Assembly (NCBI GenBank): GCA_965113315.1 | Contig: OZ220365.1 | DNA: 64,000 nucleotides | Reading direction: 5' to 3' (one strand) | Origin: Podarcis vaucheri | Lineage: Eukaryota | Shown here: piece by piece, positions 1,036 to 64,000 of the stretch | Layout of the letters: each line of letters opens with the position of its first letter | Position numbering within the stretch: position 1 is the first letter of the stretch | The notes under the pieces: generated by a model | Database searches by the model: none | What the model was told of the DNA's origin: nothing | What the model saw: the letters and a program-made list of their open reading frames with translations, nothing else | Made by a program: the position numbers and the translations under genes

Positions 1036-2906
1036 AAGCAGTAGGGTGCTCTCTAATGACGTCATGTTTTCTGGGTGTCAGTACACTTTGCCATGAACCT
1101 GGAATGAAAGTTTGTTTATTTGTTTGTTTTAAATCCTTTCTTGGTATGCAGGTGAAGGGGAGGGGAAAGCCTGTGAGCACAAGGATCGTTAAATGCTAAA
1201 ACATGGAACTTTTTCTTAAATAAGCAATTAAATGGGATTATATGTGCTTTTAAAGGGTGGAGTATGATCTCAAAGTGGAAAGAGCTGTAACGTGTGAAAC
1301 ATTCATTGCAATTCTGGCAAGTCTGATAAAACTCTTTATTTGAAGAGAAAGAATCCATTGACATGGACTTCAATATAGTGCTGAATCACAGACTCAGATA
1401 CATTTTGAAGAAACAACAACTTTTCATGAAATTTCCACCACCCCCTTTCCATTTAAGATCTTGATTTCTTTTTTTCCTCCTTCCTTTTGGAAGGGAAAAA
1501 AGCAACTTCACAAAAGCCAGTAAAAAGCATTTCACTCTTTTATTACTTGCAAACTGCCAGAACAGTTTCAGAGAAATAGCAATCATTGTTAAAGAGAATA
1601 GGAGATATATACAGATAAGGCTTTAGAAACGGCCCCATTACTCTTCCTCTTTCCATAGCACAGCTGAATGCATATTTGATAATGCAGGGACTGACGGTGG
1701 ATAAACCACCAGGACCGTGGGCTGACTTTTTAAAAGCTATACCAGCAGGAACATATAGATTATGGAAACCAAGCCTTCCCTCTCCCCATCTGCAAAGGCG
1801 AAGAATGCTGCTTTCAAAACAGGCCATTTTGTTGTGCACATGCAGCAATTACTCCTGCTGTTCATAGAAATAAAATTTACCACTACATAAAAAGTTGAGG
1901 ACTTTTATCTCTCTCTTTTTTTGAAAAATGCAACATAGCTTGCATTTTCGTTCAATTCCATCATAAAAAAGGGGGGGGGAAATCTCTGATCCCAAACAGA
2001 ACCAAAGACACCTAAAGCCCTGCTATGCTGCTATTGACTCATTGGGAATTAATAAAGCACACAATCATGAATGGGATAAGCTAATAAATCATTATCCTTG
2101 CAACACCTTACAGTATGAGATGTAAAGATAAATGTGAGTATATGTTTAAGGGCACAAAGCAGATTTAGGGTAGCACAACCGGTTCAGCCACACTGGGCGC
2201 AGAGCTGCAGGGACCCCACAAGGCATTGCAACTCTGATGTAATGAATTGAGCAAAACAGAAGGCAAGAGGCAAGGGGGCTGAATTTAGGCCTTGCACAGG
2301 GAGCCGCTGAAATTTAAAAGACCAAAGACTACCTCTGAGGGCATCTCTTCAGGAGGTCAGAAAGCAGGGCTGCTGGCAAAGTGGGACAATAGCTAAAGGA
2401 GAGGAGACCCTTTGTGCATAGTTCTGTAATAACCTATTTCTTGTTCAACTCCTCTGACCTGCTCATTATTTAAACAGAGAACAAGACAACAAAGATAATT
2501 CTTATTTACTCCAATTGAAACATCACAGGCATTCTTGGAGCCTACAATAAAATACACAGTAGATAATCCTAAACTCCATGACTACAGTTTATCAGCTGTA
2601 TATACAGGAATGTAGGTGCCTACACATCTGTCAATTCGTGCTTACAAATAAATTCATCATTTTCCATTTATTGATTTTCTGCATTTTTTAAAAAAGGGTT
2701 AAATTTAAATAAATGGCTGTGTTAATCTAACATACTGAAGGAAGTCATAAGTCAAAGCTACCACCCTTTCCTTATTTTCTTTTATATCTCTTAGGATAGT
2801 AACATAACAATACCAAAAAAGCACACACACCCTACAGCCAATTATGGTTTTAACTCTCAATCCTATATATTTAAGTTTGTTATAAGCTATGGAAGTTATA
2901 AGCTAT

Positions 2907-3324
2907 GGAAGTGAGAGCTGGAAGTGAGAGCTGGACCATAAAGAAGGCTGATCGCCGAAGAATTGATGCTTTTGAGTTATGGTGCTAGAGAGTCCCATGG
3001 ACTGCAAGAAGATCAAACGTATCCATTCTTAAGGAAATCAGCCCTGAGTGCTCACTGGAAGGACAGATCATGAAGTTGAGGCTCCAATACTTTGGCCACC
3101 TCATGAGAAAAGAAGACTCCCTGGAAAAGACCCTGATGTTGGGAAAGATGGAGGGCACAAGGAGAAGGGGCCGACAGAGGACGAGATGGTTTGACAGTGT
3201 TCTCAAAGCTACAAACATGAGCCTGACCAAACTGCGGGAGGCAGTGGAAGACAGGAGTGCCTGGCGTGCTCTGGTCCATGGGGTCACGAAGAATCGGACA
3301 CGACTAAACGACTAAACAACAACA
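2907..3324 (+). mobile_element. BovB (RTE clade) LINE, 5'-truncated 3' fragment
   Basis: Peptide KLRLQYFGHLMRKEDSLEKTLMLGKMEGTRRRGRQRTRW...WRALVHGVTKNRTRLND; (CAA)n-type tail; TSD ataagctatg at 2882-2891/2898-2907 and 3325-3334. Confidence 0.93.
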
Positions 3325-3344
3325 ATAAGCTATGAACCAGCTCA

Positions 3345-3590
3345 GCACTGAGCATGGTGGAACCCAGGTAGACAAAATTGTCTAGCACCTCAAGTGCGGG
3401 GTCACCAGTGCTGATGCTTGGAGTACTGGTGATGTCCTGACCCAGGATGTTAGTCTTCGTCAGGCTGATGGTAAAGCCACACTCCCTGCAGGTTTGGGCA
3501 AAATGGTTGATGAGTCTCTGTAGAGCTTCCTCAGAGTACGCTGTCAAGTCTGCATCAAGGCTTCCACAGAGTGCAGTGTCAAGGCTGATT
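3345..3590 (-). mobile_element. RTE-clade LINE reverse transcriptase fragment (older, not BovB)
   Basis: DADLTAYSEEALQRLINHFAQTCRECGFTISLTKTNIL...LEVLDNFVYLGS matches RT motifs downstream of FADD. Confidence 0.82.
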
Positions 3591-4185
3591 AATCTACCAA
3601 TTAAATTGAGGATAGCTTGTAGTTCTAGTTTTAGCATCTAGTTAACCAAGAGGCCTATATAAACACATAAAACCTTAACGTTTTTAGGAATTGCAGCAGC
3701 TGTTTGCCACCCTATGATTGTATTCTGACTGAATCTTACAAGCTCAGAATCCATATTGGGCAAGCATCCAGACTTCTAAGGAATGGTTCAGTGTCAAAGC
3801 AAGTTCTCTAGCGTTAGAGACACCATAGGATACATTGTTCTCTGAGCCAGCCGAGAACTAATGCCCCAACAGGGACTGTTGTAATTAAAGGAACAGCAGT
3901 CTACATTTACTCTGAAACAGAGAGAAAAAAGGAGGTTGGTGGAAGTTCAATAGGAGGTGAGCACTGGCCACTATAGATGCAGGCTAGATTTTTTAAACTG
4001 TCCATTTTTAATAAATAAATAAATTTTTCAGAGGTCTTTTTTTAAAAAAGGAAACACAGCTGCGATTACAAAAATTGTAACTATGCTGGAATAACAGAGC
4101 ATATCTCTCAGTGCTTTTGGCCACACATACATCCTTTATTTCCCTTATACCATATTTTGTGACCATCAGATGCAATATTTTAAAA

Positions 4186-9519: not shown

Positions 9520-9991
9520 TCATCTCACTTACTGAATGATCTTTGACAACCCTTTGGCACTCTCAGGGTATGAAAGTTGCAGAAGCTGGAAGCCTCTCTC
9601 CTCCTTCCCTTATTTAAGAGTTTCCTTCTGTGCATTCTTCCGGCATGATTCAGCTTTTGTTATCTGCTCTTTCCATTTTTCAGCTCTCCTTTCTTGTGCT
9701 GAGAAAGTGGGGGGAGAAGGGGCCGGAAGGGGACTGTCCTGTAACGTGGAAAATGCAGCCTCTACTCTCTCCCTATCAGGGTCTGTGCCCACACTGTGCC
9801 TTTCACCCTCACCCTCACCCTCACCACTCTCTGGCTCCAAGACTTCCCTGATGGTTCCCTCTCTGGAGTGCTCATCCCTACCTCACCAGCCTGAATCAGG
9901 CTCAAAATCTCCCTCTTCCCCAGGGTCATTCTCTGGTACTTCCTGGGCAACTGGCAGCTACCACTCCTCTCCATCTAGCCAGTCCCTGACA
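9520..9991 (-). mobile_element. Degraded Gypsy-type solo LTR (left boundary approximate)
   Basis: Ends ...agccagtccctgaca (TGTCAGGG on the minus strand); terminal about 30 bp homologous to the solo LTR at 51173-51751. Confidence 0.72.
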
Positions 9992-51172: not shown

Positions 51173-51751
51173 TGTCAGGAGCCGGAGTCAGGAGTAGATC
51201 AGCAATAAAAAAACCACTGGTGTCGGTGAAGTTAACTCTTCGTTCAAAGAAACTAAAACGGTGCTATGGTCATAGCAACTCTTTGCAGTAGGTCTTGTCC
51301 CAGTTGCGAGGACTGAAGGTCCCCAGCTTCCCACCTCTCTCTAAGGCTCCTTCCCCAGTTCTTTTGCCAGCACCTAAGACCTCATCCTCTTGCCTCTCAT
51401 TCCTCTGCCCTCTTCATTTCTATGTGTGTTCTGGGCGACCAGGGGGAGCTGGTCACAGCAGGAGGGGGAGACTCCCTGGATTCTTCAGCAGCCTGCATCA
51501 TCACTGTCTCCTGGCACATCTCTTGCCTCTGAGTCTGGACTGCCTTCTGCCACAGCCTCTACCCGCTCACTAAGCCCTGATACCTCTTCAGCTTCCAATA
51601 CCTCCTCCTCCCAGTCTTCTCCTCCTTCTCTCTCTGACCACTCATTGTCATCCTACCACCAACCCCCAGGCTCTGAGCCTTCTTCCCTTGGGAGGGGGGG
51701 TCTTCAGCTGGTGCCTCCCACCACTCCTCTGCATCCAGCCAGTCCATGATA
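51173..51751 (-). mobile_element. Gypsy-type solo LTR (579 bp)
   Basis: Starts TGTCA and ends ...CATGATA (decayed TGACA); 5-bp TSD accag at 51168-51172 and 51752-51756. Confidence 0.85.
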
Positions 51752-61358: not shown

Positions 61359-61756
61359 TCATTTAAAAACTTCAACCTTGGGTCCTTGATGTTGGTTTCC
61401 CCTTCTACGCTGTCCAGCGGTACCCATAAGGACAGACAGAATGGGAAAATGTCCAGCAATGGAAGTCAGTTTCTGCACAGTTTATGCCACACTTGCCAGC
61501 ACAGAACTTTGTGTTTATCACTATGCACCCTAAATTAAAACAAACTTCACAGGAAAAGCTGCATTTGTATTTGCAGAACCTTTTTAATGCTCTGAATGTG
61601 TATATATTAATGTGGAAGAAGAGGAAATTAATTTGACATAAATCAGATAACAAAACAAACAGCGATTTACCAAGTTCACAAGAAATCACATTATAATGAT
61701 CTTTCAGTAAGCAAATTCTCACTTGGAAGTAATTACATGCAATCCTTATGTAGAAT

Positions 61757-62512
61757 TGTCAGGGGTTCAGGAGCAGAGGCGAGGGCAAGGGAGGAAACAG
61801 AGAGCGAGGGGGAGGAGGCAGAAGAAAGGATGAGTGACGACGACGACCCGAGATCTCCGAGTCTGTCCAGTGAATCAGAAGATTCACAAAGAGGAGCACC
61901 AGTGGCAAGGGCAAGGGGGGAGACTAGGGGGACACCCCAGGAAGAAAGAGCCAGAGGGGACTCAGAGGGGAGCAGTTGGAGATCGGGACCTACGTCACCG
62001 CCAGAGAGTAGGGAAGAGGAAGAGCGCCTGGGAACTAGCGCTGGCAGCTCACAACAGGAGGGAGGGCACGAGTCAGGAGTGGCCACACCTTCATCGGGGA
62101 GCGAAGTGACGGTTAGACGGAAAGTGGAAGGTTGGGCGCGCGCGCCAAGTTCAAATGCACAGGAAGGTGGCGCAGTAGGCAGCCCGGAAAGAGAGCCAGG
62201 TCCTAAAGCCCGGCGCAAGGAGACAGGGGAGTCAGGGGGGTCAGCGTCAGAAGAATCCCGGAAGGGAGAGACCCAGGGGGGCAGAGGGACCCAGAGGAGA
62301 ACTGTCAGGCGGAAAAGGTGGAGCAGGGCTAGGATATTAAGTTGGTGCGCAAGGGGCGGAGACTCAGAAGGAGCTTCGCCGACCTAAGCATAAGGCGTAG
62401 GGTTGCACGCAGCAGCTCAAGAATGGAGACTGTAACTCAATAAAGACTTTTAATCAACAACCGCTGGCTAGCGTGATCCTCTGTGAGCTAGGATCTGGAA
62501 GTAACCCTGACA
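61757..62512 (+). repeat. 5' LTR (756 bp)
   Basis: TGTCAGGG...CCCTGACA termini; TATA-like TATTAA at 62335-62340; AATAAA at 62439-62444. Confidence 0.92.
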
Positions 62513-62514
62513 GT

Positions 62515-62525
62515 AAGCTCCTTCT
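62515..62525 (+). promoter_or_regulatory. Self-priming primer-binding site (Tf1/sushi type)
   Basis: aagctccttct is the exact reverse complement of LTR 62366-62376 agaaggagctt; no TGG tRNA-type PBS after the LTR. Confidence 0.85.
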
Positions 62526-62606: not shown

Positions 62607-63683
62607 ATGACGGCCGAACAGCAAATAACGGAACTCAGAGACGCGGTTTCACGACTGACTGCCGAGGCGGTGGCGTCCAGGAAGAGAGAGGAGGACGCAG
62701 CGGCCGCCTACAGGGATCTCCAGGTCAGGTTGGACGTGCTTACGAAGCAGGGGCAACAGACACCCAAATCAGAGGGGATTGGGTTGGGGAGACGCACAGG
62801 CAGTCTGGTCTCGCACTTCGATGGGAATTTGCAACAGTACCCCAATTTTAGAGCAGACGTAATGTGTGCACTACAACTACTGCACAAAGACTTTAGAGAT
62901 GAACAAGAGAAAGTGGGGTTCATCATGTCCCATTTGCATGGAGACGCTAAAGCATGGCTGCGCAATTTGTGGAGGGATAAGGATCCTGCGCTCCAAAATG
63001 CGGACGCCTTTATTAAAGCGATGGATGGCTGTTTTTTATCAAGCATTGACGTGGATCTTGCCCGAAGGGAGGTGCACGGACTAAGACAAGGGAGGGCCAG
63101 CGTACGGCAATATCATGCCCGCTTTTTCGCTTTGGTCAGTGCCCTGGAATGGGACAGAGATTCGGCTCCCGTCAGAGACCTTTTTTGGGAGGGCTTGAAC
63201 AGCTCGGTGAAAGATGAGATTGCGAGGGGGGAGAGACCCCGGACCACGCAGGAGATCGTTCAGAGGGCGCTGGCGGTGGGAGTGCGGCTGGAAGAACGTC
63301 CGTGGAGCAGGGACGAAGGGCGCAGCGGGCGCGAACCAGCCAGGGGCTCCTCCTTCCTTCCCAGAGAAGCAGCGCGTGCGCAATCCACGCCCCCAACAGG
63401 GGGAGGGGTGGAACCGATGGAGGTTGGGAGTGCAAGGGCTCAGTCAGCAGCCAGAGCCCTAGCACCGGCAGCAGTGAAAGCGAAGCCTCCTAGAGGGAAC
63501 AGGAAGTGTTACATCTGCGAGGATCCAGGCCATTTGGCGAAAGAGTGTCCCCGGAGGCTCCACAAGCACACTGCAGCCTCAGCAATGGTGACTGCAGCAA
63601 CGCAGCAAGGAGAACCACAGCAGGGAAACGACGATGTCTGGCTGGAAGAGGAGGCACTGGGGCCCAGCCAGACGTGTCAGTGA
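62607..63683 (+). CDS. gag: Retrotransposon Gag (PEG10/RTL-like capsid plus CCHC zinc knuckle)
   Basis: First ATG at 62607; N-terminal coiled-coil-like segment; FDGNLQQYPNF, KVGFIMSHLHGDAKAW, LRQGRASVRQYHARF, CYICEDPGHLAKEC. Confidence 0.93.
   Translation: MTAEQQITELRDAVSRLTAEAVASRKREEDAAAAYRDLQVRLDVLTKQGQQTPKSEGIGLGRRTGSLVSHFDGNLQQYPNFRADVMCALQLLHKDFRDEQEKVGFIMSHLHGDAKAWLRNLWRDKDPALQNADAFIKAMDGCFLSSIDVDLARREVHGLRQGRASVRQYHARFFALVSALEWDRDSAPVRDLFWEGLNSSVKDEIARGERPRTTQEIVQRALAVGVRLEERPWSRDEGRSGREPARGSSFLPREAARAQSTPPTGGGVEPMEVGSARAQSAARALAPAAVKAKPPRGNRKCYICEDPGHLAKECPRRLHKHTAASAMVTAATQQGEPQQGNDDVWLEEEALGPSQTCQ
63623..63682 (+). promoter_or_regulatory. -1 programmed ribosomal frameshift signal (G GGA AAC plus pseudoknot)
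   Basis: Slippery heptamer at 63623-63629 in the correct phase, 6-nt spacer, stem 63636-63645/63664-63673, second stem 63655-63659/63678-63682. Confidence 0.88.
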
Positions 63684-64000
63684 AGCAGTCCCCAGAGATT
63701 TTACCGCCCATGGACCCCCTCCCGCCCAAGCCAGTAGTGAGGCTCACCGCATCGCTCCAGCTACCCAATGGAATCACCATGGACGTGCCAATCACCGTCG
63801 ACTCGGGAAGCAATGCAGACTTCATAGGGCAGGACTTTGTCGACCGGCACGCTATACAGTTGCTGCCTGCCGCGCTGCCACTGCAGGTTGTCACGGTGGA
63901 TGGCAGGGAGCTGTTAGGGGGGCAAGTGGTGAAGCAGACGCCACCTATGGTGCTGCGGCTTGGAAATCACAAGGAGATTATCAGCTTCAACGTCACTCAA
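63623..64000 (+). CDS. pol: Pol N-terminus (aspartic protease), -1 frame, partial
   Basis: 126 open codons to the window end: ...MDVPITVDSGSNADFIGQDFVDRHAIQLLP...VVTVDGRELLGG...; DSG active site at 63800-63808. Confidence 0.92.

Follow-up and report, generated by a model that had tools for sequence, protein, structure and literature searches.

We analyzed a window of 64,000 nucleotides from Podarcis vaucheri (assembly GCA_965113315.1, contig OZ220365.1), which holds the 5' part of a Gypsy retrotransposon and two older solo long terminal repeats (LTRs). The features considered here are as follows, in window coordinates.

9610..9991, minus strand: older solo LTR that has lost its 3' part; its base-2 frame, interrupted by two internal stops, covers 126 codons up to the terminal stop of its family
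51173..51751, minus strand: older solo LTR with a 5-bp target-site duplication (TSD), from a different and abundant family (4841 candidates); frameshifted, where frame 2 of the family covers ~130-140 codons
61752..61756, plus strand: left copy of the 5-bp TSD; the same 5 bp follow the 3' LTR in the neighboring sequence (L001)
61757..62512, plus strand: 5' LTR, 756 bp, TG..CA, differing at one site from its own 3' LTR; part of a 6563-bp Gypsy element
61758..62387, plus strand: LTR frame of 209 codons plus stop, which in the 3' LTR copy reads as the end of pol; dN/dS 0.38
62333..62341, plus strand: TATA-like box by sequence, presumably functional, 33 nt upstream of the predicted start site
62366..62376, plus strand: predicted self-primer, equal to the RNA 5' end and the U3/R border; complement of 62515-62525 and overlapping the last codons of the frame
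62439..62444, plus strand: AATAAA, the probable poly(A) signal, 3' of the frame stop
62515..62525, plus strand: primer-binding site (PBS) of the self-priming type, for which no tRNA is needed; pairs with 62366-62376 in RNAfold
62607..63683, plus strand: gag, 358 aa from ATG, with a Ty3 capsid and a CCHC knuckle
63494..64000, plus strand: start of the pol frame (protease), continuing in L001 through RT, RNase H, integrase, SH3, a chromo-like domain, and a tail
63623..63629, plus strand: slippery heptamer G GGA AAC with a hairpin after it, where a -1 shift from gag to pol is predicted

Neighboring genome sequence (L001) completes the 6563-bp element, which is bounded by a 5-bp TSD and has LTRs with a single differing site. 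The assignment to Gypsy made in a first-pass annotation of the window agrees with the TG..CA LTRs, the TSD, and the order gag then PR-RT-RH-IN. Pfam domains were identified for the Ty3 capsid, CCHC knuckle, protease, RT, RNase H, integrase, and SH3. A chromodomain-like module after SH3 falls below Pfam detection; among PDB entries it is most similar to CBX5/HP1 chromodomains (E 0.008). The three cage aromatics of the chromodomain are lost in lineage A, the lineage of the window element, and present in lineage C, which is described below. The gag and pol frames overlap in -1 phase at the slippery heptamer, with the hairpin inside the following 50 nt, and the frameshift itself is a prediction. 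Heptamer and hairpin were also present in all seven other copies checked, from three lineages. The same heptamer, G GGA AAC, is found in mammalian PEG10. No tRNA primer site was found at the window element, where a self-priming site takes its place: 62515-62525 is complementary to 62366-62376, and the RNA start is therefore predicted at 62366. Of 14 lineage-A elements, 12 have such a complement of 10-11 nt, in five versions whose two sides co-vary, and it also occurs in most lineage B and C copies. Self-priming is described as a hallmark of the Tf1/sushi group (PMC6317226, bioRxiv 2022.12.06.519325), and the window element is, by its predicted features, a full-length, self-priming (Tf1/sushi-type) Gypsy element. 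The RT/IN tree was built with fish, frog, and squamate database proteins and has neither a named reference element nor an outgroup.

All 40 genome matches to the window LTR that were scored, out of 1603 candidates, are 100% identical to it, and the young copies listed are spread over many contigs. The family of the window LTR is very young and highly active. Identical copies also occur in tandem (G000:C1:106492918-106511590, loci L012 and L013). Further tandem or nested insertions were seen at L041, L058, L071, L246, L084, and L106, with lineage-A copies inside or beside other LTR elements; these arrangements may reflect target preference or survival bias.

The first-pass annotation proposed that the U3 region of this LTR is protein-coding, with an acidic, Ser-Pro, and basic frame open for about 209 codons from base 2. 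We recovered the same coordinates and translation, with the frame open for 209 codons and the stop at 62385-62387; the other two plus-strand frames over the LTR contain 11 and 5 stops. The frame ends just past the TATA box and predicted start site, as had been described, with its stop ~20 nt into R. Given an RNA start at 62366, the frame spans all of U3 plus ~20 nt of R, and because AATAAA lies 3' of the stop, genomic RNA would contain the entire frame. Within 62366-62387, a single 11-nt stretch doubles as start site, primer, and coding sequence, and the residues encoded there co-vary with the PBS. The T content of U3 is 10%. The suggested comparison with shuffled sequence found equally long frames to be rare: an ORF of at least 209 codons in any plus-strand frame arose in 0.2-1.5% of shuffles (5000 per setting), so length by itself is modest evidence and suggestive only.

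Continuity with pol was examined in near-identical siblings of the window element. In one of these, L002, pol is a single 1566-codon frame that crosses the polypurine tract (PPT) and ends at the LTR stop. The sibling set was reduced from 24 loci to 20 with two LTRs and to 19 after one with a large deletion was dropped; the 1566-codon frame is intact in 10 of the 19 (a tandem duplicate accounts for two of these) and is broken by private stops or small indels in the remaining nine. In the copy that begins in the window, pol is interrupted by a private stop 106 codons upstream of the 3' LTR. In lineages A, B, and C alike the pol codons begin at LTR base 2, and UniRef protein models from Podarcis muralis share the same tail. 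The earlier proposal that Pol continues across the PPT and into the 3' LTR is thus borne out by sequence in the family of the window LTR. Pol was in frame with base 2 of the 3' LTR and continued past the PPT rather than stopping before it. The proposal had left open whether Pol or an extra ORF was involved; the Pol half stands and the extra ORF falls away, since the frame is continuous with pol. Translation of the frame also predicts the acidic tail with a basic end that Pol was expected to gain in this family. Three lineage-A copies lack one base of the PPT and have no other variant in common, and they therefore look like recurrent slips and not a lineage. Coding read-through of pol into the LTR is almost certain. 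Long antisense open frames were also observed in L002, one of 373 codons over the tail and one of 434 codons over RT (2618-3922, minus strand).

Relatives of the LTR frame were collected using tail proteins, which yielded 103 scored relatives, from which 50-51 loci were taken. Seven real open copies, one per subfamily, were chosen from these loci for the dN/dS set. Retrieval by tail proteins (lineages A and B) and the choice of open copies bias the sample toward open frames. Frame 2 is open for at least 200 codons in 24 of the 49 junctions listed (some places were fetched twice) and broken before 200 codons in the other 25, and frames 1 and 3 at those junctions never exceed 106 codons. The open LTR frames are 206-234 codons long and end at the same motif, one truncated LTR apart. 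Between subfamilies, the LTR part has a dN of 0.277, a dS of 0.734, and a dN/dS of 0.38 (0.31-0.46), well below 1, and the same stretch read in the shifted frames gives 1.84 and 1.06. IQ-TREE estimated an omega of 0.33 for LTR codons 101-195. Elsewhere in the element, dN/dS is 0.10 for RT/RH, 0.12 for IN, 0.14 for SH3 plus the chromo-like module, and 0.40 for the tail before the PPT; the LTR value resembles that of the pre-LTR tail and exceeds those of RT and IN (0.10-0.12). Its dS (0.73) is comparable to that of pol (0.54-0.70).

Patterns of mismatch and length change point the same way. A frame-blind DNA alignment gave mismatch rates of 0.195, 0.221, and 0.381 by codon position. In columns with an invariant amino acid, synonymous change was found in 42 of 57 for the LTR and 109 of 146 for integrase; because it is as frequent in the LTR as in integrase, it is the protein that is kept and not DNA motifs. 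Invariant blocks such as PGPKARR and R-RW--L-WC occur in the LTR frame. Differences between the 5' and 3' LTRs of 41 elements, used as a neutral control, are distributed 48/67/66 by codon position, and 4 of 16 indels are multiples of 3. Pairwise gaps between subfamilies are multiples of 3 in 73 of 144 cases, a DNA-only count that is non-independent and noisy, and we therefore relied on net frame lengths as the measure of frame-keeping. Length changes between subfamilies keep the frame whereas those after insertion do not, which was the outcome anticipated for a coding U3. These substitution patterns show purifying selection on the LTR-encoded amino acids.

A profile search identified Vipera and Rhineura protein models with acidic-then-basic tails behind a chromodomain, and most other long extensions among its matches are gene-model fusions. 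Two of the proteins from this search were used to find two further lineages, B and C, in the same genome. Their integrases are 46-52% identical to that of the window element (B ~51%, C ~46%), and both read 102-115 codons into the LTR in the same phase as lineage A. The lineage B LTR is ~437 bp, and 12 of 20 fetched loci have two LTRs. The pol frame enters the LTR in 11 of these 12 copies, covering 102-110 codons in 10 of them and 158 in the other, with a dN/dS of 0.53 (0.37-0.74) over the LTR. Lineage C was searched mostly via integrase plus chromodomain and was thus largely LTR-blind, with 20 of the 105 matches picked for long frames. Eighteen of the lineage C copies have two LTRs, and in every one of them frame 2 of one or both LTRs is open over 82-115 codons; pol is in phase in 10 of these copies and has lost its phase in eight. 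The losses of phase are length changes of 1-2 bases in runs beside the PPT and are scattered over the tree. LTR dN/dS in this lineage is 0.53 (0.20-1.20), indistinguishable from 1. We found no support for the out-of-phase copies as a propagating sub-lineage, given the scatter in C and the lack of a common variant in A; homopolymer assembly error may account for them.

Fish-type database proteins end ~20-30 residues past a PPT-like GGGxV, and six of them end in SPEY/F, as judged from protein records only. A short overlap may accordingly date far back, and the long one may have arisen by expansion in squamates, with DNA here drawn from one genome. No significant protein similarity was found between the LTR-encoded tails of lineages A, B, and C and the old family, the LTR frame has no Pfam match, and Rfam returned 0 matches. 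Because the tails are dissimilar and lack a Pfam match, a shared function would rest on charge pattern and short motifs. Several public gene models from lizards, amphisbaenians, and frogs are LTR/integrase fragments or fusions with host genes (P0012, P0017, P0121, and P0016), as are many of the 150 profile-search matches. Older copies of all three lineages are strongly enriched on contig C41 (41.3 Mb, 2.6% of the assembly), for example with 57 of 90 matches in one search, as might be expected if C41 were the W or another heterochromatic chromosome.

The two solo LTRs in the window had been read as carrying the same frame as the intact LTR. For the LTR ending at 9991, a DNA search supplied 16 relatives in which frame 2 has 15 stops over 1599 aligned codons, against 114 in frame 1 and 42 in frame 3, and the terminal stop is common to eight of nine. 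Its translation was reproduced, and at its two internal stops a sense codon is present in 14 of 14 and 10 of 11 relatives, nearly always for the residue that had been named. For the LTR ending at 51751, 29 copies were mapped onto a real unbroken relative (L079). No common frame-2 stop precedes the terminal one in these 29 copies, of which 27 share that terminal stop; frame 1 has eight common stops and frame 3 has two. The frame 2 translation is as claimed, with the window copy frameshifted and the family frame open. Neither solo LTR has DNA similarity to the window LTR beyond chance words, and the two have ~30 nt in common with each other. Both solo families have an acidic-then-less-acidic pattern. 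What survives of the claim is therefore the shared phase, composition, and charge pattern in three LTRs, and not their membership of a single family. No pol in register was found beside the solo-LTR families in 88 loci gathered with PPT-plus-LTR patterns, DNA search, and protein search. Pol matches near these loci were considered as internal regions and rejected as young insertions or as lying on the opposite strand. By analogy with the autonomous lineages, a pol link of the solo-LTR families may be inferred.

The closest precedent is in plants, where CRM group A and some beet chromoviruses (Beetle7, Bingo1-4 and 7) are described as encoding the integrase end in the 3' LTR (PMC3059260, PMC3605345), as predicted here for the window's family and lineages B and C. 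In the account of CRM group A, the 3' LTR carries a targeting (CR) motif, whose partner is given as unidentified (PMC3059260). The CR motif replaces the chromodomain there, whereas a chromodomain-like module stays upstream of the PPT here. We set the CR motif apart by chromodomain position and the absence of a Pfam match. CRM group A is further reported to use tRNA-Met priming in plant hosts, unlike the self-priming window element, and differs from the window's family in that the latter has a frame spanning all or nearly all of U3 and a low-complexity tail. The window element has a CRM-like layout and is not a CRM member. Its likeness to vertebrate Tf1/sushi chromoviruses, described as sushi-ichi, Amn-san, and V-clade (PMC6317226, bioRxiv 2022.12.06.519325, PMC4131045), extends to domain order, CCHC Gag, the -1 gag-pol overlap, self-priming, and a chromodomain at the integrase end. 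The sushi U3 is reported to be T-rich (PMC3601003), in contrast to the T-poor U3 of the window.

No description of 100-230-codon U3 overprinting in Tf1/sushi chromoviruses was found in the literature searched, which agrees with the first-pass annotation, where no such description was known for squamate Gypsy elements. That literature contains no squamate or vertebrate description, and Repbase/Dfam and some older papers outside its scope may note the overlap. An analogy had also been drawn with nef and MMTV sag, which overlap U3 as separate genes with their own start and spliced RNAs. The likeness lies in a U3 that is both promoter and coding; the difference is that the window frame is the Pol C-terminus, continuous with pol and not a separate ORF. 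The analogy applies to the dual use of U3, and the plant CRM precedent is the stronger of the two.

The predicted integrase would end in a disordered tail of ~370 residues, the last 209 of them LTR-encoded. AlphaFold2 gave an uninformative mean pLDDT of 32 for a 529-residue tail alignment. The tail has a net charge of -14 over its first 70% and +9 over its last 30%, and the tails of the separate lineages each have an acidic front and a basic end although they cannot be aligned. An acidic-flanked FxGF follows the chromodomain, upstream of the LTR, in seven of seven lineage-A tails and occurs twice in lineage B. Lineage C keeps a canonical chromodomain, and RRSARLKA ends the LTR-encoded tail in all five lineage-C tails aligned (L200-L218). 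Neither RRSARL nor FxGF occurs in the LTR-encoded part of the window's family. The lineage C sequence is close to the acidic-patch motif of HMGN, given as RRSARLSA for HMGN/Dsup nucleosome binding (PMC12487698); the likeness is confined to this short motif, and any binding is putative. Similarly, the acidic FxGF in the disordered tails of A and B is a short-motif likeness to the TND-interacting motif, described as a helix, an acidic linker, and FxGF that binds LEDGF-type domains (LEDGF/HRP2 partners) (PMC9987994).

These features suggest how a single sequence could serve two roles. The RNA would start at ~62366 in the 5' LTR and end after AATAAA in the 3' LTR, so that only the 3' copy of U3 would be translated, as the end of Gag-Pol made via the -1 frameshift, and the same DNA in the 5' LTR and in solo LTRs would act as promoter only. 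The tail would form a flexible acidic/Ser-Pro spacer with short motifs and with basic clusters at its end, likely aiding nuclear entry of integrase and chromatin tethering. Protease could cut the tail off integrase. Taken as a whole, the statement that the read-through pol tail acts as a disordered nuclear-import and chromatin tether is reasonably probable. A broader version is possible and more tentative: the squamate Tf1/sushi U3 would be a modular chromatin-tethering integrase tail that mimics host motifs, using an HMGN-type anchor or, in lineages with a decayed chromodomain, a LEDGF-type FxGF, and the thousands of lizard solo LTRs would be fossil tails.

Other readings of the open frame were weighed against a tether. 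That it simply follows from the low T and high purine content of the promoter, with no selection on protein, has in its favor the 10% T of U3, the 0.2-1.5% of shuffles that yield such an ORF, and the many LTRs scanned. It is largely refuted by the excess of third-position change, the frame-keeping length changes, and the phase with pol in three lineages, the first two of which are missing from changes after insertion. Selection could instead act on an antisense frame whose third positions coincide with those of the sense frame (minus strand, 61733-62383; 216 codons in the window), in the manner of the antisense proteins HBZ and ASP. dN/dS is unable to tell the two frames apart, and the antisense frame is open in seven of 12 lineage-A copies, with two stops against 9.0 expected over seven related copies. 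The per-copy chance of having no stop is, however, 0.11-0.38 and the copies are non-independent; in the window's family the frame lacks a Met codon where it crosses the LTR, it is broken in five of 12 A, three of five B, and two of two C copies with an open sense frame, and it is the sense frame that is fused to pol. We regard antisense selection as very improbable.

Two further explanations accept the sense frame and assign it another purpose. Translation might serve mainly to shorten the 3' UTR and so spare the genomic RNA nonsense-mediated decay, with a peptide that need only be soluble and harmless. The stop would move from ~1.2 kb to ~80 nt before the poly(A) site. Its position, at the U3/R border or close to it, is common to the three lineages and does not depend on LTR length; the tails cannot be aligned between lineages, and a disordered acidic composition is as expected of a harmless spacer. 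Mere openness, however, predicts a dN/dS near 1, against the 0.38 and the invariant blocks found, and most ribosomes would still end at the gag stop far upstream, which makes a gain against decay doubtful. This explanation is unlikely. The selected tail might also work within the particle, or handle the nucleic acid of the element itself, in packaging, cDNA chaperoning, or solubility of the pre-integration complex. The evidence for selection fits such a role equally well, and Arg-rich ends can bind nucleic acid. Against it are the host-type motifs, acidic FxGF in A and B and RRSARLKA in C, and the position of the tail immediately after the chromodomain, which usually does the targeting, and we hold an intra-particle role to be improbable. 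The tether remains our preferred reading of the tail.

The read-through is real and well supported at the sequence level, a variant of a known arrangement, with a predicted function. Here the promoter of a vertebrate retrotransposon evolves under the constraint of a protein code, in at least three autonomous lineages plus two orphan solo-LTR families in one genome, and that code explains the purine-rich, T-poor composition of the LTR. Annotation of pol that ends at the PPT loses a selected domain, and short acidic "hypothetical" gene models in lizards can be LTR fragments. The tail is a candidate determinant of insertion-site choice by vertebrate chromoviruses with a degenerate chromodomain.
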